Counted from the stretch's first letter, positions 1 through 53,971 are shown. The stretch is 64,000 nt of DNA from an uncultured virus (IMG/VR IMGVR_UViG_3300025096_000011) (IMGVR_UViG_3300025096_000011); one strand, 5' to 3'. The notes: generated by a model not told the origin, from the sequence alone. Program-made: numbers and translations.

Positions 1-85
1 CGGGTACATACTTAGCGCAGGTGATACACGGGGTGATGAACTTAACGCGCAAGCCGCGCCTCGGTGCTGTCTTTCTGTCGGCCAT
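1..85 (-). CDS. 5' part of a leftward early gene (MADRKTAPRRGLRVKFITPCITCAKYVP...), truncated by the window edge
   Basis: ATG at 85 on the minus strand, preceded by GGGAGG and the same CCTACCAACCAA leader as the rightward early genes; frame open to position 1; contains CxxC. Confidence 0.6.
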   Translation of the reverse strand, partial: MADRKTAPRRGLRVKFITPCITCAKYVP

Positions 86-135
86 GGTGGCCTCCCTTGG
101 TTGGTAGGTGCCGCGATTCATTCACGACTGACCCT

Positions 136-165
136 TAAGTAGTCACCCCATACCAAGGTGGCAAG
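136..165 (-). promoter_or_regulatory. sigma70-like promoter for the leftward early gene
   Basis: Minus strand TTGCCA-N17-TACTTA, overlapping a variant of the TACCACNNTGTCAAG motif. Confidence 0.5.
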
Positions 166-539
166 GGTTTATCTTGAGAAAGTTATTCTGTGTGCATGTC
201 AAGACTAACCCTCGAAGCTACCTCTAAGGCTTTACTTGAGCACAGCTATTGCCACTGCGTCAAGACTACCCCTCATGTAATCCCTCAAAGGTAACGCATG
301 AACCCTAACCTTGACACACCAACCCTCATGTATCACCTTAACCCTGGACTTGACGGTGCCTCGCGCGGGTACGTGTGTGTGAGTGTGTGTCCGGCGGGTA
401 TTCCGGCCGGCAGGCCGGCAGGCAGAGCGGCTTGCCGGCGGGGAGCGGCGGTGCGGCGGTGAACAGCTTGGTTCGGCAGAGTTACGGCTAACTCACAGAA
501 CACAACCGAGCAGAACAGAACGGTGAACGCCTGTTCAGT

Positions 540-1070
540 AACGGTTTAACCTTGGGAGGATTGACAAAATGGCACAGTGGATTGACGGATTGCCATATTG
601 TCACAGGTTTACGGATACATGCCATGTATCTTTTCATAACGCTCGTTCGATTATTATACATGCCATGTATAAGTTCAAACCGTTACACCTTTGGTACACC
701 CTTGATACACCCAAGGTGTAACATAACTATATAGGTTTAACCTTACTTATAAAGAAGTGTTACACCTGTTACACCTATTTTCATTTGGACATGGAACTCT
801 GGAGTGTGCGCACAGCGTAGCTGTAAACAGACAAGAAACGAAGCTGTGCACAGGTTCTGTGTATACCCTGCACCCCTCAAGGTGTAACACCCAGAGGTAT
901 AGCAGGTTAAACCTGGGATATGGTGGGACACCCAGGGTGTAACAGGGTGTAACAGGGTGTCAGCAAATGACCCAAAAGCCCAGCGATAACAAGCACTTGC
1001 GCTGGTACACCCAGGGTGTAACACCCCTAACCCTTGACAAGACAAGACTTATACATGCCATGTATCCGAA
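540..1070. repeat. array of short direct and inverted repeats (candidate origin, packaging or terminal region)
   Basis: Interrupted palindrome ATACATGCCATGTAT at 615-629, 656-670 and 1051-1065; many GGTGTAAC/GTTACACC copies including tandem CAGGGTGTAA at 933-960; inverted repeat at 562-574/591-603; no credible ORF. Confidence 0.75.
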
Positions 1071-1196
1071 GACGTACCGCACAACACGGCACAGAACAGC
1101 ACGAAAACGTACAGCACCGCAAGAAAGTTCAAAGAAAGTTCGTCAATGATTCCGCACACTTACAGCGATTCAACCAACTTTCTTAGGTATACCACC

Positions 1197-1224
1197 TTGT
1201 CATAGTTGAATAGGTGCATACATT
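1197..1224 (+). promoter_or_regulatory. early promoter 1
   Basis: TTGTCA-N16-TACATT upstream of a hairpin, CA-rich leader and ORF 1283. Confidence 0.5.
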
Positions 1225-1282
1225 CTTGGGGAGGGCAGGTTGAAAACCGGCCTACCCACTACCCACCAACCAAGGAAGACCC

Positions 1283-1534
1283 ATGGGCACGATAGCCTAC
1301 AAAGAAACCGAGAGTCAGCTAATCTACTCACCGCTATGGTGGCACGAGCAAGGACGCATGCAGACCACTACTGGTTACGGTAGCAAGCTGACCACAGCCT
1401 ACAAGGTCGAGCACAATGGCCGACTGTACCGCGTTTACTGTGTGTGCTTTAGTAACTCGGGCACGCTTTACATCTTGCCCGGTGGCGAGCCACTGTATCT
1501 CTCATGCCGTAACACCCACTATCCGGAGGCGTAA
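1283..1534 (+). CDS. hypothetical early protein
   Basis: 83 aa, AAGGA RBS after the conserved leader; first gene of a tightly packed run. Confidence 0.75.
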   Translation: MGTIAYKETESQLIYSPLWWHEQGRMQTTTGYGSKLTTAYKVEHNGRLYRVYCVCFSNSGTLYILPGGEPLYLSCRNTHYPEA

Positions 1535-1536
1535 CC

Positions 1537-1734
1537 GTGACAGACAAACAAAAATACGAATGGCACACAAGTCAAAAGTGGTTTTGGTATAGCCGGTACA
1601 AACGAACCATGACTGACGCAGGCTTAGCTAACATGCCCGCAGCTTACCGCGTAAAGCACGCACCCTTAAAAGCAAAACGTCTCACCCGTCTCATCCAACA
1701 CCATCACCGCCTTGCGTATCAATACTCGGAGTAA
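1537..1734 (+). CDS. hypothetical early protein (basic)
   Basis: GGAGG RBS; 2 nt after the previous stop. Confidence 0.65.
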   Translation: MTDKQKYEWHTSQKWFWYSRYKRTMTDAGLANMPAAYRVKHAPLKAKRLTRLIQHHHRLAYQYSE

Positions 1735-1736
1735 CC

Positions 1737-2141
1737 ATGCCACAGCAAGACTACATCGACCAAGAGTTAAACCGTCACCATAACAAAGTTAAGCGTATGC
1801 GTGCACGCCAAACACGCCATGAACGCCTTGAACGCCTTGAGAATATGGCAGACTTAATGGCGCGTATGCAGTTCATCGACGCTTATATCCGTGACTGTGA
1901 ATCAGTTATGCGTGCTGACTTCGGCTTTGCTTCGTATCATCTATTCTGGCAGGTGATTGACAATCACCCGCGCATGAATCACGTTGCCTACCTTGCACAG
2001 CTTGTTGCTATTGCACACAACGTGGTCCCCGAGGATGCAAGGCGCATCTATAACAAGCTGCCAGTAAGCCATCGTGAAGCATTGAACGCACGCATCCAAC
2101 AAGAGATAGCTGACGCTACGAAAGCAAGGGAGCAAGCATGA
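1737..2141 (+). CDS. hypothetical early protein
   Basis: GGAG RBS; helical 134-aa ORF with ATGA overlap to the next gene. Confidence 0.7.
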   Translation: MPQQDYIDQELNRHHNKVKRMRARQTRHERLERLENMADLMARMQFIDAYIRDCESVMRADFGFASYHLFWQVIDNHPRMNHVAYLAQLVAIAHNVVPEDARRIYNKLPVSHREALNARIQQEIADATKAREQA

Positions 2142-2383
2142 TTCGAGGAACCGCATACTTTCCTACGCTTAGCGCAGCAGTCTCATACTACAGGCCGTAC
2201 GGTTACACCAGCACGGGTGATGACGGCGTAACAAGAGACAACACAGCTAACGCTGTCCGGTACAAAATAGATACGGGGTTAATCCATATCGGTAAGCCCC
2301 CGACCAAGCCGGACGAGCGGGCCTACATCGTTAATGAGAAACCCGGTCAGCGTTACTACGTCGAAACCCTGGAGCAAGCATGA
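2138..2383 (+). CDS. hypothetical early protein
   Basis: GGAGCAAGCATGA junction at both ends. Confidence 0.7.
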   Translation: MIRGTAYFPTLSAAVSYYRPYGYTSTGDDGVTRDNTANAVRYKIDTGLIHIGKPPTKPDERAYIVNEKPGQRYYVETLEQA

Positions 2384-2610
2384 ACCCCGTCGAAGCCCTT
2401 GATACCTTCCTGTCCTACAGTAAACCGTCACAGGTAACCACCAAAGTATGGCTCGCCCTACCGTTAGCCGGCGCAACCATGGAATCGTTCTTGCGGTTCT
2501 GTAGCCTACCGGAAGCAAAGCAAAAGGAAGTGATGCCCAAGCTACAGTATGCAGCCGGGGTACTCCGGTACGGTAGAGACAGTGAGTACAATGAGCCGGT
2601 GAGACTCTGA
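2380..2610 (+). CDS. hypothetical early protein
   Basis: ATGA overlap with GGAG RBS; followed by a terminator. Confidence 0.65.
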   Translation: MNPVEALDTFLSYSKPSQVTTKVWLALPLAGATMESFLRFCSLPEAKQKEVMPKLQYAAGVLRYGRDSEYNEPVRL

Positions 2611-2624
2611 ACCCAACCGCTTTA

Positions 2625-2650
2625 GGGGAGCGTTATCCCCAACATTTTTT
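2625..2650 (+). terminator. intrinsic terminator
   Basis: GGGGA-gcgtta-TCCCC hairpin followed by AACATTTTTT. Confidence 0.5.
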
Positions 2651-2661
2651 GAGAAACCCCC

Positions 2662-2689
2662 TTGACTTTTATACCACGGTGTCAAGATT
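2662..2689 (+). promoter_or_regulatory. early promoter 2
   Basis: TTGACT-N16-AAGATT with TATACCACGGTGTC in the spacer; same layout as the promoter at 5445. Confidence 0.55.
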
Positions 2690-2737
2690 CTTATTGAGGG
2701 CGGGAGCCTTCACCTACCAACAACCAACGAGGGAACC

Positions 2738-3421
2738 ATGACCTACGATAACGAATACGAAGACACGTCCGATGAGGCTACTGTGATTGAGCCGGTGAGT
2801 ATTGAGCCGGTGAAGCCTGCGCAAAAGTACATGGGCCACCTACCGCTTGAGATTGCTAAGGCCATGAAGCCTATCATCATGGGCAAGCATGCGGGCAGTC
2901 AGCCTTCGCTCACACAGATTTACTGTGAGGCTATCGACGACGAACGCAAAGACAAGCACAGTAAGCTGGGTCGTGCCCGGTACATAGCTACCAATGGCAA
3001 CGTAATGCTGACCATCGAAACTAACGTAGCCGCACCCACGGAGCCGGTGGTGTTCAGCGCAGAGCCTAACCCTGACAAGTACGTTGGTAACGATAGCGAC
3101 GTAAGCATCGTGATTGCATCCAAGGGTCACGTGGCTGTCAGCGGTGAGGATGCCGCGAGTGCTCGCCATAAGTTTCCTGACGTTAGTGTGCTCCGGTTGG
3201 ATGCAGAAGGTTCATTGAAGCGAGTAGGGCTTAACTCCGGTTACCTTCACATGCTCCAGGGTATCAACACGGCGCTCAAGTTGGGCCGTGATTGTAACTG
3301 GTCGGTGCGGTTTACCGGTGACGAGTGCGACCCTACTGTATGGGAGCCGACTGGAGCAAGTGATCTTAGTTACGGCGTAACGTCAGTACAGTTTGTCATC
3401 ATGCCAGTTCGGTTGGACTGA
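2738..3421 (+). CDS. DNA polymerase III beta sliding-clamp-like protein (shortened)
   Basis: Motifs in DnaN order: IATNGNVML (cf. ATDGHRL), KFPDV, VGLNSGYL (cf. GFNxxYL) and C-terminal FVIMPVRL. Confidence 0.6.
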   Translation: MTYDNEYEDTSDEATVIEPVSIEPVKPAQKYMGHLPLEIAKAMKPIIMGKHAGSQPSLTQIYCEAIDDERKDKHSKLGRARYIATNGNVMLTIETNVAAPTEPVVFSAEPNPDKYVGNDSDVSIVIASKGHVAVSGEDAASARHKFPDVSVLRLDAEGSLKRVGLNSGYLHMLQGINTALKLGRDCNWSVRFTGDECDPTVWEPTGASDLSYGVTSVQFVIMPVRLD

Positions 3422-3501
3422 CAGGTACGTGGGGAGCGGACTGGTCGCCCGCATTAACAAAGCGACCACCATCTACCATTCACAAAACAAGGGAGCCTAT
3501 C

Positions 3502-4083
3502 ATGTCAGTAGTTCACGTTCATACGTTTATCAAACGTCAAACAGCCGACTCTCGGTTCAGCCACACGAAGCTAACGCTTGACGAGTTAGCAGCCGAAGCG
3601 CTTGCTAACATTGACAACGCAAAGCCGAGTAGTTTTCAACCCCTCGCGCTTGAGGTACCAGTCAACCCGTCACACTGCCGTACAAGTACCGTCACGCTTA
3701 ATGGTGGCGACGAGTTGGTCGCCTCGTTCGCGAGTCGTCGCGATGGTGAGGCACCGCGTATGGTAGTCGAGGCGCGAGCAAGCGAGGCAGCAGGCGCGTG
3801 CAAGATGCCAGCTAAGTCAGCGTGCGCGATTCTATTCCCATCTACCCTGCTTGCTGAAACCGGTGACAACGAACTTGAGCCGGTGGAGGGTAACTGGGAG
3901 ATGATTAGTCTGAACGCCAGCCCGACCGAAGAAGCTACCCCGATTGCACCTGATACCCTTATGCACAACCACTTCGGCAGTGACGGCGGTACGGCTACTG
4001 GCTTGAGTGATGCTGACTTTGTTGCTGCATTGCGGGAGTCGTTCACATTCTGGAAAGACAAAGCCATGCTTGGAGGTGAGTGA
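3502..4083 (+). CDS. DUF3228-like protein
   Basis: WEMISLNASPTEEATPIAPDTLMHN...GGT...SFTFWKDKA resembles the recalled DUF3228 C-terminal pattern. Confidence 0.65.
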   Translation: MSVVHVHTFIKRQTADSRFSHTKLTLDELAAEALANIDNAKPSSFQPLALEVPVNPSHCRTSTVTLNGGDELVASFASRRDGEAPRMVVEARASEAAGACKMPAKSACAILFPSTLLAETGDNELEPVEGNWEMISLNASPTEEATPIAPDTLMHNHFGSDGGTATGLSDADFVAALRESFTFWKDKAMLGGE

Positions 4084-4343
4084 TGCCGACTGATACCTAC
4101 GAATGGACTGAGGTTAAACCCGAAGATTGTGTCTACCCCGGCAGTCGACTGGTAGGCTACTATTCCTGCCGCCTTGGTCCTGGTCCAGAGGACATAGTGT
4201 TGTACCGGAAACCCGGCAAGCGCCCTATGTATTTTGCTACCGTATCTCATCCCATATATTATCGGTCCAAAGACCGACCGACAATCGAAGGGGCAATCTC
4301 CAATCTTAATCAGAAACGTTCAGCACACAAGGGAGGTGAGTGA
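4083..4343 (+). CDS. hypothetical early protein (cassette)
   Basis: Bounded by GGAGGTGAGTGATG junctions. Confidence 0.75.
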   Translation: MPTDTYEWTEVKPEDCVYPGSRLVGYYSCRLGPGPEDIVLYRKPGKRPMYFATVSHPIYYRSKDRPTIEGAISNLNQKRSAHKGGE

Positions 4344-4609
4344 TGCAGTTGGTTCAAACGGTAAGCCAACGCCAAACGTCAGCCGGTAAGGTTCGCATAC
4401 TGAGTGCTAAGTTTGAGGTACCCAAAAGTAGAATGTCACGTAGCGCTTCGTGGGACATGTGCAGATTGCAAGGCGAGCGCAACGGTATACCGCAGCACGC
4501 ATGGACAAAATGCCACGGTGACGGAATGTGGAAGTGGTACACATGCACTTTTCGAGAGTTCAAAGTTCGTAGCTTTATGCACAGTAAACGTAAACAGGGA
4601 GGTGAATGA
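4343..4609 (+). CDS. hypothetical early protein (cassette)
   Basis: Bounded by GGAGGTGA(G/A)TGATG junctions. Confidence 0.75.
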   Translation: MQLVQTVSQRQTSAGKVRILSAKFEVPKSRMSRSASWDMCRLQGERNGIPQHAWTKCHGDGMWKWYTCTFREFKVRSFMHSKRKQGGE

Positions 4610-4995
4610 TGCGATGGGATCTAACGCAGATCGAGGACTACAAGGACAAGTGCTTCCGGCCCGCAGGGAAGTACGAGGATTCAGATGACGGGTACGTGGT
4701 CAAGCTGACGACTGAGCGAGTCATCTACGCATGTGAGGCCGTGGAGATGTCAGGCATCACGCCGGACAATGTAGATGAGTTTTACACCCGCTACCTCATG
4801 TTCAGCCGAGCAATCCGACGTGGTTCAAGGGACCAGTGGCTCACACTCGCGGACATTGAGAATCACATCGGAATCTGCACGAACGTGGGCACGAAGTCGT
4901 GGGAGCATTTTGATGAGAGGATCAGCAGGATCATGCGGGAAGAGGCCGAAAGGCAAGTCAACCGAGAGCGCGGTGAAGCGCAAGGAGGTGAGTGA
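4609..4995 (+). CDS. hypothetical early protein (cassette)
   Basis: Bounded by the conserved junctions; globular-looking ORF. Confidence 0.8.
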   Translation: MRWDLTQIEDYKDKCFRPAGKYEDSDDGYVVKLTTERVIYACEAVEMSGITPDNVDEFYTRYLMFSRAIRRGSRDQWLTLADIENHIGICTNVGTKSWEHFDERISRIMREEAERQVNRERGEAQGGE

Positions 4996-5204
4996 TGCCC
5001 AAATACAACGTACACTGCACGACAACAGTTGAGATATACGCAACCATTGAGGCCGATAACCATGATGAGGCAAAGCACATGGCTGCTAACATTACGATTG
5101 TAAACTATGCCGATAAAACGGTAGGCGCCGAGACAGACGATGGTGAGATAACCGAAGTCATCGGCCATGAGGTAGCCGGTGTCACGATCATAGGAGGTGA
5201 GTGA
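4995..5204 (+). CDS. small acidic early protein (cassette)
   Basis: Bounded by the conserved junctions; YNVHCTTTVEIYATIEADNHDEAKHMA. Confidence 0.75.
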   Translation: MPKYNVHCTTTVEIYATIEADNHDEAKHMAANITIVNYADKTVGAETDDGEITEVIGHEVAGVTIIGGE

Positions 5205-5440
5205 TGACGAGATTCATACACATAAGTAGCTACGAACGCTACCGACAGAGCCGAACTGAGTGGCTAAATGTTAGTCTCATTCAATCTGTATACGCAGAGA
5301 TTGAAGGGGGTAGCTTCGGGGGACTAACTACAATCGTTATGCTTGGCGGTTTTGGACCTAAGGGTACTGACATTGTGCGAACGATTCGTACGAAGGAAAC
5401 TCCTGATTCATTCTTCCAAAGAATGAACAAGCTGATATAG
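5204..5440 (+). CDS. hypothetical early protein (cassette)
   Basis: Starts at a conserved junction and ends just before promoter 3. Confidence 0.7.
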   Translation: MTRFIHISSYERYRQSRTEWLNVSLIQSVYAEIEGGSFGGLTTIVMLGGFGPKGTDIVRTIRTKETPDSFFQRMNKLI

Positions 5441-5444
5441 GGGG

Positions 5445-5472
5445 TTGACATCTATACCACCGTGTCTATATT
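5445..5472 (+). promoter_or_regulatory. early promoter 3
   Basis: TTGACA-N16-TATATT with TATACCACCGTGTC in the spacer. Confidence 0.7.
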
Positions 5473-5523
5473 TTATACTGGGTGATTCATCATCCATCTA
5501 CCAACCAACAAGGGAGCAAGGCC

Positions 5524-5964
5524 ATGAGCCAAGACGACAATACGCTTGAGAACCTACCAGTTGACGCAGTGATAGCGCTGTCCAAGCTGGCCGACAAGGG
5601 TACCAAAGAGTGCAAGTCAGCACGCAAGTACATCCAGCCGGGGCGTACGTACAGAGGTAGCCTGCTGCTTGACTTGCACTATGAGTTGCACTCGGCGCCA
5701 CCAGGCAAGGATGCAGCCATTCCGTTGAACGCATGGGCTATCCTGGCCGCAGTGCTCGACACACCAGACGGTGTAGAGATTGTGCAGGATGCAGCGGAGC
5801 GAGCGCACCACTATCGCGAGAGCCTGGGTCACGTAAAGCAGGTGGCCAAGGACGCATCGACGGAAACGTGGGTGTTCACACGACCAGGCAGTATGCGTAT
5901 CACAGTTAAGAATGACTTGCGCGAAGCTGTATCAGAGCAACACAACAAAGCTGGAGGTGAGTGA
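5524..5964 (+). CDS. hypothetical early protein
   Basis: ATG 5524 follows the CA-rich leader and GGGAG; protein ends in GGE. Confidence 0.75.
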   Translation: MSQDDNTLENLPVDAVIALSKLADKGTKECKSARKYIQPGRTYRGSLLLDLHYELHSAPPGKDAAIPLNAWAILAAVLDTPDGVEIVQDAAERAHHYRESLGHVKQVAKDASTETWVFTRPGSMRITVKNDLREAVSEQHNKAGGE

Positions 5965-6383
5965 TGTTGGTTGTCGAGGTCAAAGACAAGATGACGAAAG
6001 GCGGCAGGCTCGTTTATAAATGGAAAGTCATAGACATGAACATGACGCTATCCGAGTTCACGGCCATGCGAAAAACGCTGGCCGAGAAGTTGCCTCAGTT
6101 CTATTCAACAACCTCTAAGTTTCAAATCGGGAGTGCGAATGGCTTTAGCTTGGACCTTATGCACTTGCTTGGATGGATTGAAAAGAATGACGCACCAGCG
6201 ATGCGGAAGAAAGCCTACAAAGTCATAGCCGGCAACGTTCAAGTGATGGCCCCGGTCATGTTTCAATACCCCGCTACATACCAGTGCAGGGTGACGCATG
6301 TAGATGGCGTGAAGCTAAAGCACCGGAAGTGCTTTCCAGAGCAGACATACAGTAAGTGGCTGCGCGAGCAGGGAGGTGAGTGA
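5964..6383 (+). CDS. hypothetical early protein (cassette)
   Basis: Bounded by the conserved junctions. Confidence 0.75.
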   Translation: MLVVEVKDKMTKGGRLVYKWKVIDMNMTLSEFTAMRKTLAEKLPQFYSTTSKFQIGSANGFSLDLMHLLGWIEKNDAPAMRKKAYKVIAGNVQVMAPVMFQYPATYQCRVTHVDGVKLKHRKCFPEQTYSKWLREQGGE

Positions 6384-6949
6384 TGACTAAAAGATGGCAA
6401 GGACCAGAGCACCAATACTCAGAGGCTCAACGGGCCTACGAACAGCGCGAAGAACACCGCCATGAAGTCTGGAAGGAAAACAATCCAGAGTGCCAAAGGG
6501 CTATCAGTGAACACTCTACGTGCAATCATCGTGAACATGTAGACAAGATGACCGATATGGGTGGAGAGGTTTGGTGTACTCATTGTGTCAGTGAACACAC
6601 GTTCGAATGTGAGGTATGCGACGAGGTTCACTCTGATGAATACTTGGCTAACGTGGATCTAACTTTGGGTGAGTATATATGTACTGACTGCGACGAGAAG
6701 TGTGCGGCTGACAAGACACGCCATCATGCTCCGGTAGAGATAGGCATTGGTCACATGGAATACATACTGTGGGTGATGGGTAACGCTGCGAAAGACAAGC
6801 CGTATGAGTCCAAGCCAGGGAACGCAAAGAAGTGGTTGAAGGAAGGCATCGACCTAATCAAAAAGTCAATGCCCGATGCAGACCATGAGGCAACCAACGA
6901 TGTGATGGATGCTCTATCAGAGTCAATGAATCCGGTAGGGGGTGAGTGA
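6383..6949 (+). CDS. zinc-finger-containing early protein (cassette)
   Basis: CTHC, CEVC and CTDC pairs; bounded by the conserved junctions. Confidence 0.7.
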   Translation: MTKRWQGPEHQYSEAQRAYEQREEHRHEVWKENNPECQRAISEHSTCNHREHVDKMTDMGGEVWCTHCVSEHTFECEVCDEVHSDEYLANVDLTLGEYICTDCDEKCAADKTRHHAPVEIGIGHMEYILWVMGNAAKDKPYESKPGNAKKWLKEGIDLIKKSMPDADHEATNDVMDALSESMNPVGGE

Positions 6950-7323
6950 TGAGTAGCTGGGAGAAAGTAATACCGTCCATCCCGCTTGTGCCTGGGGTGC
7001 CCGTCATTCCGGTGGTCGCTGGGTGCGGAACCAAGTCTGTACCTGTGCTGGGGTCAGGGCGTGGCGGTCATACAATCAAGGTGATGACTGAGAAAGATGG
7101 GCCGCTGACAACCAAGGCAACGAACTGGCGAGTAGATTTAAACAATCCATTGGGTTTCATGTACGCGCTCATGTGGCTCTACAATGAGTACGCAAATGAC
7201 TGCTACTGGCCACCATTGTTTGACGGGCGCGTCGATGTGATGCGCGGAGACTACAACGATAGAGACATTTCAAAACTGGCTCACGCTATGCGTGATGTCG
7301 CAACCAAGAGGGAGAAAGCATGA
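6949..7323 (+). CDS. hypothetical early protein (cassette)
   Basis: Starts at GGGGGTGAGTGATG and ends at GGAGAAAGCATGA. Confidence 0.7.
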   Translation: MSSWEKVIPSIPLVPGVPVIPVVAGCGTKSVPVLGSGRGGHTIKVMTEKDGPLTTKATNWRVDLNNPLGFMYALMWLYNEYANDCYWPPLFDGRVDVMRGDYNDRDISKLAHAMRDVATKREKA

Positions 7324-7535
7324 CAGACGAAAGAGGACCACCAACCATGGGGCAGTTGAAAAGAATGAAAAACTGGATGGAGCACCTGTCTAAACCAGGA
7401 CCAAAAGTTGTTTTCCGTAACAAGAGCGGTGTTGAGACGTCTCAACCCTATCCAGAAGAGGGGCGCCAGGAAGCAGTGAAAGCGTTAAAAGAGATTAACG
7501 CGATGATTGCAGAGCGTGAAAAGGCGGAAGCATAA
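7320..7535 (+). CDS. hypothetical early protein
   Basis: ATGA overlap, GGAG RBS. Confidence 0.65.
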   Translation: MTDERGPPTMGQLKRMKNWMEHLSKPGPKVVFRNKSGVETSQPYPEEGRQEAVKALKEINAMIAEREKAEA

Positions 7536-7840
7536 TGTCAATCGAACAGTACACATATACAGCCGGCGGGGATGTCGGAGTCAAGGAACACGAGGATGGT
7601 TCTGTGGAATCACTGCATGGCTTTAGCGCTATGGGTGAAGAAACAAAGTACATCGTGTTGCCGGATGAAATGGGTGGCGGGCAGATAGACATTGTTCATC
7701 GTATGAAACACGCGTGTCCAATGGAAGACTGCGAAAAAGAACACGACATGGTTGTCTTGGCGCCTACCAAGGATGAGTCGCCAGAGCAGTTAGCTGTAGT
7801 TGAGTGTCAAACGCATGGCTTCTTGTGGTGTACGCTGTGA
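7535..7840 (+). CDS. hypothetical protein, possible Zn-binding
   Basis: TAATG overlap; CPMEDC and CQTHG motifs. Confidence 0.65.
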   Translation: MSIEQYTYTAGGDVGVKEHEDGSVESLHGFSAMGEETKYIVLPDEMGGGQIDIVHRMKHACPMEDCEKEHDMVVLAPTKDESPEQLAVVECQTHGFLWCTL

Positions 7841-8019
7841 TACTCACAAGCTACGTAGCTGGTCCATACTTTCCGAGGTACTACACTTACTGCGTTGACT
7901 GTAACGAACACCTGGGACCATTCCTGACAAAGAAGAATGTTAAGTCACGCTGCTTCAACTGCGGTGTTGCTGACCGCGCCAAGAAACTGAGAGCCAAGAG
8001 ACGGAGAGGGAAGACGTGA
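7837..8019 (+). CDS. small Zn-ribbon protein
   Basis: GTGA overlap; CVDC and CFNC pairs, basic tail. Confidence 0.6.
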   Translation: MILTSYVAGPYFPRYYTYCVDCNEHLGPFLTKKNVKSRCFNCGVADRAKKLRAKRRRGKT

Positions 8020-8291
8020 GTGTCGTAGATTTATTGAAGGAAGAGGTTGAAGCAGTTGAAAAAGAGTTGGAGTCTGTGCTGTCCTTGATTGCACAGTCGA
8101 TTGAACGGCTGAACAATGTATCAATCCGGTTGGACGGTGGGATGTGTGAGTTGGTTAGTGACGTAGACCTAACAGGCATAAGAGAAATACGGGAGATCAT
8201 ACAGGAAATGCCCGAGGACTTGAGAGAAGATCCTCGGAACAGTCCGTATATTGACCGCCTTGAGAAGATACTCAGCAGCTTAGCTAACTGA
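8016..8291 (+). CDS. hypothetical coiled-coil protein
   Basis: GTGA overlap with GAGGG RBS; last gene of the early run. Confidence 0.65.
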   Translation: MSVVDLLKEEVEAVEKELESVLSLIAQSIERLNNVSIRLDGGMCELVSDVDLTGIREIREIIQEMPEDLREDPRNSPYIDRLEKILSSLAN

Positions 8292-8306
8292 GTTCATTGA
8301 GGGGTG

Positions 8307-8330
8307 GTAGCCTCAGTGTGGCTACCTTCG
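8307..8330. terminator. hairpin between convergent units
   Basis: GGTAGCC-tcagtgt-GGCTACC stem. Confidence 0.4.
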
Positions 8331-8364
8331 TTGAGTCGCATCCCTTGGGCTCAGTGGGGGTAGC

Positions 8365-8727
8365 CTATTCTTCTGCGGGCTCGTCATCTTCGGGCTCAGT
8401 CTCAGGGCCTTGCTGTGATTCAGCTACACGGGTCAACTCGTCTGCCATCTTCCGCATGTCATTGGCCATCTGCTTCATCTGTTTCAGCTTGGCGTCGATG
8501 TCCATGTCATCCATTGGTGGGTCGGTGTCGCTGCCGTTGGATTCTTCGTAGGTATCATCCGAAGTCATAGGCTCGCTGGCGTAGGCGTCATCCTCCTGGT
8601 CATGGTCAGGATGACCGCAGCCATGCACCATCTTCTTCTTAGCTGAGATGTAACCAGGGCCAGAGAAGTCAGGCATCATATCCTCTTCCCGCTTGAGAAC
8701 TAAGATAGCTTTAGGACCGCCGTGCAT
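8365..8727 (-). CDS. acidic hypothetical protein
   Basis: 120 aa, GGAG RBS, downstream of the terS-like gene. Confidence 0.7.
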   Translation of the reverse strand: MHGGPKAILVLKREEDMMPDFSGPGYISAKKKMVHGCGHPDHDQEDDAYASEPMTSDDTYEESNGSDTDPPMDDMDIDAKLKQMKQMANDMRKMADELTRVAESQQGPETEPEDDEPAEE

Positions 8728-8774
8728 GATAACTCCAGAGTTGGTTTAAGCCTATCATGGTTAGTAGCTACGTG

Positions 8775-9326
8775 TCACTCTTTGGTCTGTGACGTAGCCA
8801 CGATACGGGCAAGGCGTTCATCGAAGTCGATGTCAACTGCGACCGCAGTAGCCTGCCCACCTTCCTGTTGGTTAGGTGAGATACCGCAACGATCCAGTAT
8901 CTCGGACGCAGCCTTGACCCGATCCCGTGGGTTGACTGCAACGTCACCGACAATGGATACCAAGGCGCTTAGCGCACCTTCCGCAGCATCTTCCAGTTCT
9001 TGCCCGAGAATAGACTGCCGACGTGCCTTGCCTGCCTCTACAGCGGTTCGAACGTCGGGCTCGTTTGACCAACACCAAACTGTAGTGGTGCGTAGTTGCA
9101 GCCGACGAGACACACTTTGCACTGTGTAACCTGCTTCAAGTAACCGGATGGCTACAGCTTTAGTCTCATCATCCTCGGCATACTTACTCTGCTCCGCAAG
9201 CATAGCCACAACCTCGTTCTCACCAGGAGCAGACACGACACGGGGGAGCACCTGCAAAGGCTGATTAGCCGGGGATACATCCTCGTCATCAGCTACCGGA
9301 GGCAGTGTTATCTCATCATCTGACAT
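8775..9326 (-). CDS. terS: terminase small subunit-like HTH protein
   Basis: HTH (AIRLLEAGYTVQSVSRRLQLRTTTVWCW) followed by the TerS-type oligomerisation pattern AEGALSAL...RDRVKAASEILDRCG; ATG 9326 preferred on RBS. Confidence 0.6.
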   Translation of the reverse strand: MSDDEITLPPVADDEDVSPANQPLQVLPRVVSAPGENEVVAMLAEQSKYAEDDETKAVAIRLLEAGYTVQSVSRRLQLRTTTVWCWSNEPDVRTAVEAGKARRQSILGQELEDAAEGALSALVSIVGDVAVNPRDRVKAASEILDRCGISPNQQEGGQATAVAVDIDFDERLARIVATSQTKE

Positions 9327-9455
9327 AGAACCCTCGTCACTAACATACCACGTAGTCAAGTGTTATGCCTTATTTGCGGAGACAAAATGCCACAAGACAA
9401 ACTACGAGCAGGATTATCGCGGCTGTTGTCTCGCGCATTTTCAGGCACACTAATC

Positions 9456-9484
9456 TTGACAAGGTGGTATAAAGCCAGTATGGT
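9456..9484 (+). promoter_or_regulatory. sigma70-like promoter
   Basis: TTGACA-N17-TATGGT containing CTTGACAAGGTGGTA. Confidence 0.7.
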
Positions 9485-9524
9485 AGGCAAAAGCAAAACA
9501 GTGTATGCTTCAAAGGGAGAAGCC

Positions 9525-9821
9525 GTGAGAATGGAATCAGCGAATACAATGGATCGGATGCTCTGCTTGTTTCAAGCCTGTCGTGATGCAGTTGAGTACG
9601 AAAAGAAACTGTCGAAGTGGTTAGACACCGAGGCAAAGATTAGCGTCGAGTATGAAGCATCAGACTTAGCAACTGCCCGTCTGATTGTTGATGACCGTGA
9701 GGTATGCCGCCTTACCTCCGATGATCCTGTGAGTTCGTTGGATGAGTTAATGTGTTGGGTGTGGGCCACAATGGTTCTCGGTGACTACACCAACATGAGA
9801 ACACCAACCATCGAAGCCTAA
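9525..9821 (+). CDS. hypothetical protein
   Basis: GTG 9525 or ATG 9531 after GGGAG, downstream of the promoter at 9456. Confidence 0.65.
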   Translation: MRMESANTMDRMLCLFQACRDAVEYEKKLSKWLDTEAKISVEYEASDLATARLIVDDREVCRLTSDDPVSSLDELMCWVWATMVLGDYTNMRTPTIEA

Positions 9822-11905
9822 TCGCTCTCACCCAAAGCAATGTTCGCCGCATGTCGGTGGATGCAGTAGCAGCGAGCCTGTACCCCACCCAACCTTACGG
9901 GACGTGTGCGGCTGGTGCTATTCTCCAGTCGGATAAGCCAACCACGTTCATCCCAACGCTCCAGTACCTCACCTGGATGGTGACCAACTGAGGCCAAGAA
10001 CTTGCGTAGTTCTACAGAACTTATGGCGATGTACTCCCAGCTTGGATCACCAGCCCACGCACCCAACCATCCGGCAGGGGGAATAAGGGCAGCACCATTA
10101 CTCAGCTTATCGTTGCGACCCCAGAAGCGCGCCTTGTGCGAAGCGCACCAGGTCAACGTGTCTTGTAATGCTACCAGTGGTCGGTCTGCTTCCACACCAG
10201 CTTGGATGGCCGCGTCAACAAGATAACCGAAGGGGTCACACTCTGCTTGGGGCACACCAAGTTGGTGAACGATCGCCGCCGATACCTCAAGCGCTGCGAT
10301 ATGCGATGACATTCTCCGAGTAACCGCAGTCGTAGCCATGCTCGCGTAGCGGTTCCTGGCGTCATTGAACACGGCACGAATCGCGTCATGGTGCTTGTGG
10401 TTGCCAACCAAGTAACGAACGATTGCGCGGCCGAGGTGGCCGTAGTTCTCCGCGAGGATCGCCTGTAGTTCTTCACTGGTCTGTCCTCCATGTCGAGGAT
10501 TGTTGCCAAGCGGCTTGCCCTTGAGTGAGATCACACGGGCACGGGTTCCTGCATCTTCACTGAATGATGTGGCAGAACCTTCACCACTACTAATCATAAC
10601 AGACTGCCAACTATCAGTGGCGCGTGTGCCGTCAACAGAACCACGACCACGACCTTGACCTTGGCAAAAGTCATAGATGACATCACGGACAATGCTCGGA
10701 CTCTTGGCGCGTTTGGTTTCATCGAGGATGACCGGCAGGTTGTTAAGGAATCCGCAGGTACGTTCAATCCATACCTTCGTTGAATCCCATGAGTACATCG
10801 CAGTCGGGTAAGACTCAGCCGGCCGACCCCACACGGATGCAGCGAACTTGAGCGCGGTAGTCTTACCGCCACTTGTCTCACCACTAAAGTCCACTACGAA
10901 ACCGGAGATACGTAGGATCTTGAGTAGGGGTGCCGCCGACGCAGCGTACAGCGCAATCATCATAAGAGGGCTATCAACTACAAGTTCCACACCAGTTAGC
11001 CACGTTGCGTGCTCACCTTTAGGTTGCCATCCACCAGACAGTCTCTCGAATCCGGTAGGGGGAGTAAGCGCATAGTCAGCCTTTTCTTTCTCCGCCTCGT
11101 CGGTAGCGTAGTACCCGTCAGAGAGCAGGAACCCACCATTCGGAAGCCAGCCCATTCGGTTTGCAGACTTGATTGAAGGGAACCTGTGTTGGTTCTCAGC
11201 TTCAAAGTCAGCAAGGTAAGTCACGATTTGCGCCGCGATGGTTGAGTTAATCGGTGCCTCAATACTGGAAAGTTGCACGATTCTTCCGGTGTCCATGATG
11301 GTGCGTCGGTCGAGGGTACGGCTACACCAACCACTCGGACCTCTCCACACCACCTGTCGCTTCGCTTCGCCGCTGTGTACGTCTTCTGTGCGACCCACAA
11401 TAAACATAGGAGCAGAAGCGATCCTCACGTTATCTACGGTGCCATCAAGATTGATCCCCATCTTCGACACGCCGGCAGGAGATATGGAGTAGCCACGGGG
11501 CACTTGCAGGTCTTGAAGCGTAGAGTGAGACACGACCGAAGGTGGTGGTGCTCCGCCGTCCAACACGTCAGCCAAGCTACGCGATGGTGCGTTGTCTGGT
11601 GTTACAGAATCTGCGTCACGTTTTGCCTGTTGCTCAGCTAAACGCTGTACTGCTTTACGAAGGCTACGCGCTCTACTTACTTGACCCGGTATGGATTCGA
11701 GCACAGATAGCAGACCCGATACGGTATCGGTATGGAACCGCCATCCATCTGCAAGCGCAGACATGGATTCGTGTTTGTGTATATCAGCCCAGGCTTCTGT
11801 CTTGTCGTCCTGGTCTTTCTTTTTCGCCGCATCAATCACTCTTTGTAGTAGTTGAAAGGCGTGTGGTTTCTCTGATTCTGCTTGCTCTACATCAGCGGTG
11901 GTCAT
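9818..11905 (-). CDS. DUF927-domain (Cch-like) replicative helicase/ATPase
   Basis: RMGW motif, Walker A GETSGGKTT, Walker B ILDE, GQGRGRG, ISSGE and ENYGHLG are typical of DUF927 proteins. Confidence 0.8.
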   Translation of the reverse strand: MTTADVEQAESEKPHAFQLLQRVIDAAKKKDQDDKTEAWADIHKHESMSALADGWRFHTDTVSGLLSVLESIPGQVSRARSLRKAVQRLAEQQAKRDADSVTPDNAPSRSLADVLDGGAPPPSVVSHSTLQDLQVPRGYSISPAGVSKMGINLDGTVDNVRIASAPMFIVGRTEDVHSGEAKRQVVWRGPSGWCSRTLDRRTIMDTGRIVQLSSIEAPINSTIAAQIVTYLADFEAENQHRFPSIKSANRMGWLPNGGFLLSDGYYATDEAEKEKADYALTPPTGFERLSGGWQPKGEHATWLTGVELVVDSPLMMIALYAASAAPLLKILRISGFVVDFSGETSGGKTTALKFAASVWGRPAESYPTAMYSWDSTKVWIERTCGFLNNLPVILDETKRAKSPSIVRDVIYDFCQGQGRGRGSVDGTRATDSWQSVMISSGEGSATSFSEDAGTRARVISLKGKPLGNNPRHGGQTSEELQAILAENYGHLGRAIVRYLVGNHKHHDAIRAVFNDARNRYASMATTAVTRRMSSHIAALEVSAAIVHQLGVPQAECDPFGYLVDAAIQAGVEADRPLVALQDTLTWCASHKARFWGRNDKLSNGAALIPPAGWLGAWAGDPSWEYIAISSVELRKFLASVGHHPGEVLERWDERGWLIRLENSTSRTRPVRLGGVQARCYCIHRHAANIALGESD

Positions 11906-11944
11906 CCGTTTAGGTCCTTATTATTCAGGGTGTCAAATAGGGTA

Positions 11945-12045
11945 GGACAAAACGCCGCCCGCGTATTCCACGGACGGCGCAGTGTTCCCTGAGCCCACTT
12001 CCTCGTTTCCAAGGGCCGGTTGCGCTACCAGCAGGCACTCTGACT
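11945..12045 (-). ncRNA. candidate structured leader or small RNA ending in an intrinsic terminator
   Basis: Three-way junction with a GAAA-capped stem, then CGCCGTCCG/CGGGCGGCG stem plus TTTT; upstream TTGACA-N18-TACAGT. Confidence 0.4.
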
Positions 12046-15932: not shown

Positions 15933-18752
15933 CTAAATGTCCTTTAGTGTTCTGCCCACGTCACCTTCGGCGGTCATCACGACCTCCCAACCAGGGATGC
16001 TGACTGTCATGCACTCTTCAAGTACACGACGGGCCTTCTCAATCTCAGGTGGTAGTGGGTTGTTCTTGCGTTCTTTGGGATGCGGTGGCTTCCACAACGG
16101 GTCGAAGCCATCAGGCAGCGGTATCTCTACTGCAATAGAGTCGTGGCATTGGTGAATCATGCCGGTGCCTTTGCCCGCAAACTCATGCGGAAAGGCGTCC
16201 TGTACTGCGATCTCAGCCAGCCGCATGATACTGGACTCAGCCGCAAGGATGGGGAAGTTCACCACTTCGTTCAGCTTGCCGTCGCCCAAGGGACCACTGC
16301 GCCTACCCATGACGGGTTCTTCCATCCAGCCCTGGTGTTTATACATCAACATCATACGATCCCATGACTCAGCCCACTCGGGCTCAGACTTCATCCACGC
16401 ATCGTGCATCAGTCGTACTTCTCTCAAAGTCATACCGACATAGGGCAAACGACCGTCACCTGTTTCAGTGCTGGTGATTACCTGCCAAGCTGTAGCAGGG
16501 TTAGCACCGTAGATAGACGCGTACCGCAGTGTCTTGCACACATCGCGCATGTCCTTGGCTTCGCCTCCCTCCGGTTTGTTATACAGCGAGAAGCCATCGG
16601 AACCCCAGCCAGAAGCTGTCTTGAACTTGTCCCCAAAAGTAGCGTATGCAAGTGTGTTGTGTGGGTCCTTGCCCTCTTCAAAGCACTCAAGCAAAAGCGG
16701 TATTTGCCAGTAACAAGCTGTGATTCTTAGGTGTGCTTGGTCAAGGTCAGCACCAATAAGTACGCGCCCCGGTTCAGCAGCAAAGATAGCCTTGAGCCTG
16801 CCTTGCCCCTTCCGACTGCCTTGGTTCTGTAAGTTGGGCCCAGAACTACTGAGCCTACCTACACTGGTCACATGCGCGTTCCACGTTGAGCGTACACGCC
16901 CGTCTTCATGCACCACACCTTTCTTTACATCAATGTCTCGTCGGTTGAGTGGGATGAGTGTCGTGCCCAGGATTTTATTCTTCTCGCGACGATACAGCCG
17001 CAGTTCTCGGATGAACTCGGTTTGTGATTCGTCCAGCTTACCGCTGGCCAAGTGCCCGCGAAGCACAGCATCGCCGGTACTGGGTAAGCCTGACTCAGTA
17101 TAAAAGTCTTTGGCGTCCATCTGTGGCGGGATGCTCAGACCCCACTTGCCATAGAGCAGATCCCTGATTTGCGCTGCACTGCCAGGGTTTACCTTGTCGT
17201 CTGCGTTGATAGCGGACTCGCTTATGTCTTTACCACTTACCTGCTTGATAAGGTTACGCAGCTTCTTAAACCTACGGCGCACACTCAGTTGGTACTCTGT
17301 TTCAAGGCTGGCCCGTAGCTTCTGGTCTACCCACACACCATTCTTGTGCATGTTGACGCACATATCTTGTGTCGCATGGTCTACTTCGTTGAGGTTCCAT
17401 GCACGATGGTCTTGCCATCCGGCAGGTACAATATCCTTTCGTATTGCGCGAAACGCGCCTGACTCAGTAGAGCAATCGATAAGCGGTACTGTGATCCGTG
17501 CGTTGACTACTGCGTCCACGATGTTGTACCGCAACAGTTCATCGTCATCCTCAGAGCCTGTGCTGATCTTCGTACCTTTCTCGGTAGTCTCCCAGCGTTC
17601 AACGTCAGTGAGGATGGAGCCTACGGTCTTGAGACTCTTGGGTAGGTCTGGTGCCCTGAATCGTGCATGGAACAGCGTATCTACTAACGGTGCGGGAGTA
17701 ACGCCCAAGTGATTCTCGACGACCATGCGATCGTAATACCCGGCATTGTGACCCACCCACACACGTCCATCTGTGAAGACGCGACGTAAGATGTCTTTGA
17801 TTCGCCATTCGTCTTCGGGGAGGTAGAAGTGAGCGCGCCCATCTACTGATAGCAACCCCACCCCCACAGCCCTACTGACTTGTGCGTAGGTTCCGCGTGC
17901 TGCCTTACCTCTGTAGTCAAGGTCGGGTGTAGCGATGGCGATGGTACGTAGTCCGCACTCCATGGCTTCGATGCCATCTGTCTCAACGTCATAGGCCCAA
18001 AAGGGTGCAGGTTGAGCCAACCACTGTTCCAGTTGGCATGGTGTCGGTCGCCACAGGATCTCGGGTTCTTCCCAGTTCAATCGGTCTTCGAAGTATCGAA
18101 ACGCTTTGCCGAGGTCTGATAGGAACACGCTACGCCAACCAGGGGACCGGATAATAAACGACGGGTGTAGCATCGGCATGACCTTTCGGTCAGGTTCTTC
18201 GTTCGTGACATACCATGTGTCGTCAATGCCGATGGGCCCACCACGGGTAGCATGAATACTCTGTGTTCTACCCGTCAATGCAGACGTAGCGATCTTGCCC
18301 AACGTGATGATGTTTTTGTACTTTGATACGAGGTTGAGCAATGCGGGACGGCAGCACTCTACGGGTGATGCCCACGGGTCCATACCCTTTTTGACCCGGC
18401 TCTTATTCTCTTGGTCGATACGCTTGGTCATACGTATGAAAGCGCCAGATGGTTGACCTGGAGGCTGACATAGGAAAGTGTGCGTTAGGTCTACGTCAGG
18501 ACGACGCTTACACGTAGCAGCTAAGCCTGCGTTCCATTCGTTGCCGCTGCGACCTACCAAGGGTCTGCCAAAGCGAGTCTCCTCTGTGCCCGGTGACTCT
18601 GCGACAGCAAGTACAGTTGCGCCGTCGTGAATCTCTGCGGGTACCGGAGCCCACTCATCTTCTCGAATGAATCCATTGGGTCCAAGAGGACATTCGTTAC
18701 ACCGTGCGCCTTTGCAGCGAGGGTCGAAGTCATGGACGGGATATTCAGTCAT
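15933..18752 (-). CDS. polA: family A DNA polymerase with N-terminal family-4 uracil-DNA glycosylase-like domain and 3'-5' exonuclease
   Basis: UDG4 motifs (CxxCPL, AESPG..E...GRPLVGRSG, TLGKIA, HPS); Exo I DVET, Exo II GHNAGYYD, Exo III YNIVD; GRLSSSGPNLQN; motif A DLDQAHLR, motif B KTLRYASIYG, motif C HDS. Confidence 0.95.
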   Translation of the reverse strand: MTEYPVHDFDPRCKGARCNECPLGPNGFIREDEWAPVPAEIHDGATVLAVAESPGTEETRFGRPLVGRSGNEWNAGLAATCKRRPDVDLTHTFLCQPPGQPSGAFIRMTKRIDQENKSRVKKGMDPWASPVECCRPALLNLVSKYKNIITLGKIATSALTGRTQSIHATRGGPIGIDDTWYVTNEEPDRKVMPMLHPSFIIRSPGWRSVFLSDLGKAFRYFEDRLNWEEPEILWRPTPCQLEQWLAQPAPFWAYDVETDGIEAMECGLRTIAIATPDLDYRGKAARGTYAQVSRAVGVGLLSVDGRAHFYLPEDEWRIKDILRRVFTDGRVWVGHNAGYYDRMVVENHLGVTPAPLVDTLFHARFRAPDLPKSLKTVGSILTDVERWETTEKGTKISTGSEDDDELLRYNIVDAVVNARITVPLIDCSTESGAFRAIRKDIVPAGWQDHRAWNLNEVDHATQDMCVNMHKNGVWVDQKLRASLETEYQLSVRRRFKKLRNLIKQVSGKDISESAINADDKVNPGSAAQIRDLLYGKWGLSIPPQMDAKDFYTESGLPSTGDAVLRGHLASGKLDESQTEFIRELRLYRREKNKILGTTLIPLNRRDIDVKKGVVHEDGRVRSTWNAHVTSVGRLSSSGPNLQNQGSRKGQGRLKAIFAAEPGRVLIGADLDQAHLRITACYWQIPLLLECFEEGKDPHNTLAYATFGDKFKTASGWGSDGFSLYNKPEGGEAKDMRDVCKTLRYASIYGANPATAWQVITSTETGDGRLPYVGMTLREVRLMHDAWMKSEPEWAESWDRMMLMYKHQGWMEEPVMGRRSGPLGDGKLNEVVNFPILAAESSIMRLAEIAVQDAFPHEFAGKGTGMIHQCHDSIAVEIPLPDGFDPLWKPPHPKERKNNPLPPEIEKARRVLEECMTVSIPGWEVVMTAEGDVGRTLKDI

Positions 18753-53413: not shown

Positions 53414-53971
53414 CTACCACACACCGTTAATCCAGCATGTTGCCTTGTCTCCCGAAGAAGAACCAGCATCGGCTTCAAGAGCCATTGCAAAGACACATTC
53501 AAGATTGTCGGTAGTTGCATCAGCGTTGAGCGTGATTGTGTCAGCGATACCCGCAGTGCTTGCGTGAGCGACCAAACGATCACCTTGAGCAACACCACCG
53601 TCACACTGAACTTCACCAGCACCCTTTGCAATGATCCAACCGTACTCACCTGCGGCAATCGCACCACCAGCTACTCCAAGAATCCGATACACATGAAGTG
53701 TCGCGGTGGAGAGCAGTCCGTGAAAGGATGCGTAATCGCTGTTATCCAGCATGATTACGTTACCTTCCGCAAACGCCGATGAATCATCGTTGTAAACGAA
53801 GATCCACTCCCGATCACCATAATGAGTCGAGTTAGCAGCGGTTACTTCGTCCGCTTTTTGCGTACGGCGAGTACCTACAGGGTATGCCTCAAAGGAATAT
53901 GTAGCAGCCGGCCAATCTTTGCCAACTGCTCCATCGACGACAGAAGCGCCTGAACTAAAAGTACCACTCAT
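53414..53971 (-). CDS. capsid cement/decoration protein
   Basis: GVAGGAIAAGEYGWI..G pattern; ATGA-coupled to the major capsid gene. Confidence 0.7.
   Translation of the reverse strand: MSGTFSSGASVVDGAVGKDWPAATYSFEAYPVGTRRTQKADEVTAANSTHYGDREWIFVYNDDSSAFAEGNVIMLDNSDYASFHGLLSTATLHVYRILGVAGGAIAAGEYGWIIAKGAGEVQCDGGVAQGDRLVAHASTAGIADTITLNADATTDNLECVFAMALEADAGSSSGDKATCWINGVW

Follow-up and report, generated by a model that had tools for sequence, protein, structure and literature searches.

A 14-nucleotide motif, GGAGGTGAGTGATG, joins unrelated small genes (g1 to g10) in a marine phage of about 65 kb (IMG/VR record IMGVR_UViG_3300025096_000011), of which a stretch of 64,000 nucleotides, here called the window, was analysed. 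The motif combines a Shine-Dalgarno (SD) sequence, a stop codon and a start codon, by which it would couple the translation of neighbouring genes, and it likely serves also as a short-homology seam for the exchange of gene cassettes; the probability of this combined reading is put at roughly 0.6. Within the group of related phages the motif marks cassette exchange and likely mediates it as well. The array consists of two runs, g1-g6 (3502-5440) and g7-g10 (5524-7323), with the following features.

g1, 3502-4083 (+): 193 amino acids, borderline match to DUF3228 (25.8 bits against a cut-off of 25)
Junction 1, 4072-4085 (+): exact 14-mer, end of g1 (TGA 4081-4083) to the ATG of g2 at 4083
g2, 4083-4343 (+): first run
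Junction 2, 4332-4345 (+): exact, g2 to g3
g3, 4343-4609 (+): first run
Junction 3, 4598-4611 (+): variant GGAGGTGAATGATG (GAATGATG type), g3 to g4
g4, 4609-4995 (+): first run
Junction 4, 4984-4997 (+): exact, g4 to g5; left end of a 1394-base skip
g5, 4995-5204 (+): first run; match to a PHROG of unknown function
Junction 5, 5193-5206 (+): exact, g5 to g6
g6, 5204-5440 (+): first run; ends without the motif; a promoter-like site and a leader separate it from g7
Promoter match, 5445-5472 (+): sigma-70-like, TTGACA-16-TATATT, 11/12; between the runs, sole promoter-like site in the array
Leader and ordinary ribosome-binding site (RBS) before g7, 5488-5523 (+): contains CCAACCAACAAGGGAGC; a similar leader precedes g1 (3467-3501)
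g7, 5524-5964 (+): second run
Junction 6, 5953-5966 (+): exact, g7 to g8
g8, 5964-6383 (+): second run
Junction 7, 6372-6385 (+): exact, g8 to g9; right end of the 1394-base skip
g9, 6383-6949 (+): second run
Junction 8, 6938-6951 (+): variant GGGGGTGAGTGATG (GGGGG type), g9 to g10
g10, 6949-7323 (+): second run

An earlier note on this DNA had placed the junction at these eight positions and had not seen it at gene junctions elsewhere. All eight were recovered: a scan of the window at up to one mismatch gave eight copies of GGAGGTGAGTGATG, exclusively on the plus strand, against a shuffle expectation of 0.02 (none of 100 dinucleotide shuffles gave eight, the maximum being one). The whole record of 65,086 bases holds the same eight copies and none besides, which confines the junction to the array, while the reversed control pattern does not occur. 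At all eight sites the motif is read in the frame GGA GGT GAG TGA, the downstream ATG uses the A of the TGA, and open reading frames (ORFs) of 69-193 amino acids lie on either side of the one-base overlap. Eleven of the 14 base pairs are coding sequence of the upstream gene. The sequence GGAGGTGA occupies the last codons of this gene and leaves a gap of 3 nt to the ATG, the GGAGG core being 6 nt away from it; an in-frame GTG immediately precedes the ATG. The eight upstream proteins (g1-g5 and g7-g9) end in GGE, as the note had stated together with the TGATG overlap. Its description of the joined genes as unrelated was borne out, since the ten flanked proteins are without significant mutual similarity (best blastp E-value 0.03 over 17 residues).

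Conservation ends sharply at the edges of the 14-mer, and no shared flanks were found around the sites in the window. Neither an inverted repeat nor stem-loop or attC-like folding was found in the 14-mer, and the window contains no Rfam families or tRNAs. Programmed frameshifting or bypassing at the SD-GAG-TGA sequence was dropped as a candidate, as a slippery re-pairing codon is absent; the likeness of GGTGAGT to a splice donor was dropped as a coincidence arising from the complement of the anti-SD sequence. In the interior of g1, 73 bases ahead of junction 1, the sequence TGAGTGATGCTGACT (4004-4018) agrees in 14 of 15 bases with TGAGTGATGCCGACT (4077-4091), which comprises the 3' part of junction 1 and the start of g2; this may be a remnant of an older junction or a chance match.

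None of the conditions named as refuting by the earlier note held. Related phages do not retain the content or order of the array, and their breakpoints, resolved to single nucleotides, coincide with the motif. The closest relative, locus L009 (primase 96% identical; 84% nucleotide identity over 8465-11999), shares with the array only g7 (90%), g9 (76%), g10 (79%), the promoter and 19 bases of g2, and carries about 12 motif-type junctions of its own. At 5953 and 6938, identity between the window and L009 extends through the motif and gives way to noise right after the ATG; at junction 8, L009 contains four extra genes. A second pair of loci, L412 and L413, differs by an additional cassette of 109 amino acids in L413, located between two shared genes and flanked by a direct repeat composed of the motif and five further bases. 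Gene F30 is 97.5% identical in both loci, the genes upstream of it are unrelated, and the switch lies inside the motif. In both clean single-cassette indels the direct repeats run on for 5-6 bases after the ATG; among unrelated motif genes, five or more bases past the ATG are shared at a baseline of 0.0056, to be read with the fact that the pattern was spotted post hoc. These longer repeats favour a length-dependent use of homology. The extra cassette of L413 and the gene following it share the start ATGGACCT, and in both clean indels the first codons of the inserted cassette are those of the following gene.

Breakpoints were also obtained from the high-scoring segment pairs (HSPs) among 45 sequences (at least 75% identity, motif copies at up to one mismatch, interior defined as at least 25 bases inside). 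Not one of 97 motif copies was interior to an HSP between contigs, while 37 marked the ends of HSPs. Under a threshold of 85% identity, motif borders formed HSP ends 34 times and were never spanned, whereas other gene starts formed ends 14 times and were spanned 83 times. HSPs started at motif base -3 to +3 in 13 of 20 cases and ended at base 14 +0 to +5 in 18 of 24. The joints are seamless, and the motif is retained on whichever side is common to both partners. The family of the downstream neighbour was kept in none of 41 comparisons across the motif and in 64 of 384 elsewhere, a comparison that is pseudo-replicated.

Contigs assembled from other metagenome runs (X1-X7) were compared with the window as well, parts of the stretch not covered in X2-X7 being excluded as evidence. 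They contain a motif-to-motif deletion and the same cassettes beside other neighbours. In contigs of X5 and X6, marine metagenomes that belong to two studies, position 4997 is joined to 6392, i.e. motif 4984 to motif 6372, by which g5-g8 (1394 bases) are skipped; upstream of g4, the X6 contig carries a different gene as well. Loose ends were found at 4984, 4998, 4999 and 5002 for junction 4 and at 6386, 6387 and 6392 for junction 7. Other sequence begins just before junction 1 in contigs of X2, X4 and X5. At junction 2, contigs of X4 and X5 diverge right after 4345 and one X5 contig matches from 4328, while at junction 3 the match of an X6 contig starts exactly at 4598. In a contig of X4, an L009-type gene is joined at its end to g6 within junction 5 (in the motif, at 5198), where X6 diverges at 5207. 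In X4 and X5, g2 (4070-4345) has foreign neighbours on both sides; g4 was found with four or five distinct downstream partners and g9 with at least four upstream partners. Among the 23 loose ends listed, out of 41, 15 are located within -4 to +7 of a motif, this zone comprising 6.5% of positions. A joint of 2967 to 7597 (X1 and X2) was set aside as belonging to another organism, as it rests on two 21-base matches. The 6.2-kb contig concerned, present in both runs, matches the window at 2947-2967 and 7597-7617 only, and the two matches are 2132 bases apart in the contig; it likely belongs to another phage that has short conserved words in common with this one.

The phage's own group comprises 36 related loci found via the primase (45-96% identical). 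In the window and these relatives, 36 exact copies of the motif were counted on the array strand, its variants being rarer (GAATGATG 5, GCATGATG 4, GAAGG 3). Half of the loci (18 of 36) contain no copy within two mismatches, some of these being incomplete at their ends. Among 11-mers, the motif ranks first in number of repeats in the window, L009, L024 and L036, and shares the first rank in L011 and L021. In five whole records of relatives, four of them with a completeness of 94% or more, its copies occur in clusters only, apart from three outliers, and it is absent from the junctions of core and late genes. The exact 14-mer stands before 68 of 667 called ORF starts, in 20 of the 45 sequences, while the runner-up junction, itself a one-mismatch variant of the motif, precedes seven. 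Singleton ORFs are not significantly enriched behind the motif (33 of 58 versus 221 of 475, p = 0.16). Locus L036 (record G002) has two exact-motif arrays in opposite orientation about 12 kb apart, one with five copies (46796-47819, plus strand) and the other with three (59769-60171, minus strand).

The properties of the motif as a translation signal are pronounced. Calculated for the 20 bases upstream of each start against a 16S rRNA 3' tail, which may not be that of the host, the predicted SD:anti-SD duplexes of the eight motif genes (-15.2 to -17.3 kcal/mol) surpass those of all others among 66 genes; the remaining genes of the window reach a median of -6.8 and at best -13.3 kcal/mol. The eight other one-nucleotide stop/start overlaps in the window each differ in sequence and have a weaker SD sequence, and late genes including the capsid gene have weak ribosome sites. 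Far beyond this group, the exact 14-mer is present in about 2000 IMG/VR stretches (estimated from 4 of 64 parts) compared to 112 for the reversed control (complete scan), an enrichment of about 18-fold, and the variant with A at position 9 in about 1000 (estimated from 8 of 64 parts). In a virome-wide sample of 129 loci with 151 exact copies (locus GC content 0.33-0.73), an ORF of at least 40 codons starts at 127 copies. The GGE-stop frame is open upstream at 94 copies, the upstream stop is the TGA inside the SD sequence at 18, and neither frame applies to 39, so that at 57 of the 151 copies the second TGA is not the upstream stop; in other phages the motif is also found between genes or in another frame. 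Two phages that are complete and unrelated, G006 (40.6 kb, terminal repeats, locus GC 0.67) and G007 (56.8 kb), also contain small arrays of the motif; both lack a homologue of the primase. In G006 (locus L174, GC 0.67, 2800-4150) the motif lies within a longer local repeat, …CCCTGCG(G/T)GGAGGTGAGTGATG, and one upstream ORF ends at the SD-internal TGA with GTGATG retained even so.

The 14-mer is therefore a recurrent translation optimum across phages. As it recurs exactly in unrelated phages, translation alone can produce identity of sequence, and the optimum explains much of the identity of the 14-mer. The claim of the earlier note that identity of the whole junction exceeds the needs of an RBS is weakened, given about 2000 stretches against 112 for the control at 33-73% GC. 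Anatomy and virome-wide use together suggest a role as translational coupler.

Translation might even be the entire explanation, which we consider less likely than the combined reading. The 14-mer would then be the best combination of RBS and overlap, arising repeatedly by selection and marking genes of fast turnover without promoting their exchange, and the turnover itself would result from illegitimate recombination anywhere, selection retaining the joints at gene borders. Such an explanation agrees with the virome-wide enrichment over a broad range of GC contents and in unrelated complete phages, with the copies in which the second TGA does not end the upstream gene, with the non-motif breakpoints at gene starts that are common in the group, and with C-terminal tails that vary upstream of the motif in families F5, F20 and F24. 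It accounts less well for the dominance of the exact form in the group, where the ratio of G to A at position 9 is 36:5 compared to roughly 2000:1000 virome-wide, for the distance between the 14-mer and the next junction (68 of 667 starts versus 7), and for the weak sites of the late genes. The seamless joints with the motif kept on the shared side, the repeats running past the ATG in both clean indels and the 97 copies of which none is spanned by homology likewise speak for an additional role in exchange. The remaining alternatives are far weaker. Of these, a shared RNA target is improbable: the 14 bases on early mRNAs would be read by a phage factor that silences all of these genes at once, either a RegB-like nuclease cutting in SD sequences or a RegA-like repressor, after the examples from T4. 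The restriction of the motif to one block of small genes and its conservation past the SD core, including position 9, would suit such a target, but PHROGs and Pfam scans gave no candidate factor and Rfam no match, the identical 14-mer occurs in unrelated phages, and the changes of neighbours at the motif are left unexplained.

A dedicated site-specific system, i.e. an unrecognised recombinase or homing enzyme acting on the 14-mer like an integrase on attC, is still less probable. Sharp, repeated breakpoints at one short site would be expected from it, and a gene for a RusA-like resolvase (2738-3421) is located just 5' of the array. However, scans of 63 window proteins against PHROGs and 17 against Pfam yielded neither an integrase nor a transposase or homing nuclease, inverted-repeat or stem-loop anatomy is missing from the 14-mer, and unrelated phages use the same sequence as a common RBS; the indels whose microhomology is extended or different (ATGAGCCAA) agree better with general short-homology events. 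The least credible of the alternatives is a functional Gly-Gly-Glu end of the proteins, for instance a stability or sorting signal, which the earlier note had offered as a weaker option on account of the eight GGE termini and which is rejected here. The codons are invariably GGA GGT GAG, although the array genes use GGA for only 9 and GGT for 27 of 74 glycines and GAG for 61 of 91 glutamates, a combination expected at about 3% per site if the residues alone counted. Moreover, variants alter the residues and keep the bases (…GSE, …GEE, …GGD, …GGA), and other phages carry the motif in another frame or between genes.

In the preferred reading, coupling and exchange would depend on the same bases. 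One 14-mer carrying SD sequence, stop and start would couple translation along the string of small genes, the strong SD sequence retaining or recruiting ribosomes and re-initiation taking place at the overlapping ATG. Crossovers would rely on the 14-base identity shared by every cassette end, and cassettes would be deleted, inserted and swapped between related phages at this sequence. A crossover between two copies would yield a seamless product; because this product would be in-frame and translatable, such recombinants would survive, and the connector would spread along with the cassettes. The Sak4-like annealing protein and the PD-(D/E)XK nuclease of this phage are candidate enzymes only. 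The Sak4 of HK620 is reported to possess single-strand annealing activity (PMC5928155). A single-strand-binding protein was not identified in the PHROG and Pfam scans of the window proteins. A wider version of this reading, possible but doubtful, regards the 14-mer as a self-propagating, enzyme-independent connector that drives most ORFan turnover in the early regions of a widespread group of marine phages and may allow cassettes to move between unrelated phages with the same connector, since any crossover of two copies would give a working array when the 14-mer is ribosome site, stop and start in one. To the same doubtful extent the connector would be a translation-level counterpart of the promoter-early stem-loops (PeSLs) and a minimal integron-like system without dedicated recombinase.

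A number of observations weigh against homology at the motif as the driving force. That homology causes the exchanges remains a proposal drawn from sequence comparison: since the motif is identical in all partners, a crossover inside it is indistinguishable from a joint beside it, and an illegitimate joint beside the motif, kept by selection, fits the same sequences. Motif and hypervariable region are confounded, because the borders spanned by homology are mostly found in the conserved backbone near the primase. Fourteen bases are also short for known phage recombinases. The recombination connector proposed in the earlier note was therefore sustained only in part; breakpoints at the motif and changing neighbours were found as proposed, but so were mosaic joints at gene starts that have no motif. 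The g10 homologue of L009 follows a different RBS, several pairs of relatives break at ordinary gene starts, and a contig of X3 ends at the ATG of 1283, a non-motif start. An extra gene of 115 amino acids in L009 (gX; reverse complement 4385-4740) is inserted between leader and g7 without the motif; the 9-base repeat ATGAGCCAA is located at both of its ends and also opens g7 (window 5524). In families F5, F20 and F24 the members that carry the motif have differing or extra C-terminal tails, so some joints must be placed upstream of the motif, and some genes joined the connector system in this way. As for the material, the metagenome evidence consists of assembled contigs and not of reads, seven of the 45 sequences were picked for their several motif copies, the comparisons are pseudo-replicated, and genes were called by a crude ORF script on one strand. 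Early timing and coupling, finally, are properties that we infer only, no RNA run having been found to contain the stretch.

The cassette ORFs are real genes, as judged by the excess of synonymous over non-synonymous differing codons between g7 (24 versus 11) and g10 (35 versus 29) and their homologues in L009. Searches of PHROGs, Pfam and a protein atlas assigned no known function to any cassette, the matches of g1 and g5 given above being the only ones, and INPHARED phages gave no blastn match to 3400-7400. Position, small size of the ORFans and a host-type promoter are the grounds for the label "early"; the cassette genes would be polycistronic and transcribed early from host-type promoters. 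Promoter-like and terminator-like sites in 1-9900 are no more frequent than in shuffled sequence, and the only promoter-like site used in the argument is that at 5445, whose surroundings (5442-5532) are 88% conserved in L009. The following features were assigned outside the array.

RusA-like resolvase gene, 2738-3421: directly upstream of the array
Primase/helicase, 9818-11905 (-)
PolA-type polymerase, 15933-18752 (-)
Sak4-like protein, 19500-20492 (-): E-value 1.4e-9
PD-(D/E)XK nuclease, 20508-21515 (-)
Helicase, 21515-23443 (-)
Major head protein, 53968-55041 (-)
Large terminase, 55599-57092 (+)
Portal, 57669-59405 (+)

An ORF of 2685 amino acids (30431-38488, minus strand) encodes a metallopeptidase/lysin-like domain near its N-terminus (residues 74-192 match PHROGs) and is adjoined by an ORF of 1353 amino acids without PHROG match; both probably encode giant proteins of the virion or for ejection. 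Another junction that recurs, GGAGCAAGCATGA, was found twice in exact form and once as GGAGAAAGCATGA (2129-2141, 2371-2383 and 7311-7323). It consists of the SD sequence GGAG, a spacer of 5 nt and an ATGA overlap, and may represent a second, weaker class of connector. Within 1283-2610, only the gene bounded by it (2138-2383) matches L009 (73%). At the left end of the window, in mostly non-coding sequence, the near-palindrome ATACATGCCATGTAT of 15 bases occurs three times (613-629, 654-670 and 1049-1065); the copies look like putative operator or protein-binding sites. Elements of the form ACACCC(A/T)(A/G)GGTGTAACA, which hold the inverted repeat ACACCC/GGGTGT, are located upstream of the first small genes (703-723, 924-944 and 1003-1023, also 868-893 and 1493-1518).

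The early regions of phages are the main store of ORFan genes for host takeover and counter-defence, and how these genes turn over rapidly without loss of expression is only partly understood. The 14-base element described here contains the full set of translation signals and is located at each change of neighbour observed in the comparisons. In natural populations, represented here by several studies, the same cassette is found in four or five contexts. If homology drives the exchange, the motif would allow cassette boundaries and recombination seams of metagenomic phage genomes to be predicted by a simple rule, would carry the PeSL idea over from transcription signals to those of translation and would offer a natural design for gene swapping in engineered phages. 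If not, the perfect SD sequence with TGATG would be a virome-wide convergent optimum that flags accessory genes of fast turnover. In the open literature (subscription journals being outside the scope), nothing was found on ribosome sites as seams of phage mosaicism or microhomology or on translationally coupled phage cassettes that recombine, nor any report of the exact 14-mer or of GGAGGTGA in connection with phage.

The closest known parallel is the PeSL of T4-type phages, described as a conserved interval of about 100 bp with promoter and terminator that flanks ORFans, recombination between its copies explaining indels between close relatives (Arbiol et al. 2010, PMC2839356; see also Comeau et al. 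2014, PMC4122927). Both systems have a repeated, conserved regulatory motif between ORFans in hyperplastic or variable regions, both show insertions, deletions and replacements bounded by the motif in close relatives, and the logic proposed is the same, i.e. recombination at the motif giving viable, ready-to-express products. PeSLs are about 100 bp long, intergenic and active at the level of transcription, whereas the motif described here is 14 bp long, mostly coding and composed of translation signals; it is without the anatomy of a sigma-70 promoter and terminator stem-loop. Mini-circles are reported as demonstrated for PeSLs, while the present connector is known from assembled contigs alone.

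Integrons rely on attC sites and the integrase IntI, and their promoter-less cassettes are expressed from an upstream promoter. The array resembles them in its row of promoter-less cassettes behind an upstream promoter and in a content that varies between relatives. It differs from them in that no integrase, attC-like folded site, attI or sign of site-specific chemistry was found here, and the phrase "integron without an integrase" used in the earlier note stands as an analogy only. The motif fails the defining anatomy of PeSLs and integrons alike and hence works like both without being a member of either. In the models of Susskind and Botstein and of Hendrix, mosaic joints of lambdoid and other phages reportedly fall at gene boundaries, where short conserved boundary sequences are found. 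As in lambdoid mosaicism, homology starts and stops at gene borders, with homologous exchange at short linkers and illegitimate recombination followed by selection as candidate causes. Unlike the lambdoid linkers, a single identical 14-mer, which is at the same time a ribosome site, precedes about one tenth of the called starts in the variable early regions of 20 contigs. Translational coupling, in turn, commonly involves an overlapping stop and start (TGATG, ATGA) with an SD sequence inside the upstream gene. The motif shares with such junctions the SD sequence in the last codons, at a spacing within the usual 5-9 nt, and the one-base TGA/ATG overlap; ordinary coupled junctions vary from gene to gene, whereas here all 14 bases are identical.

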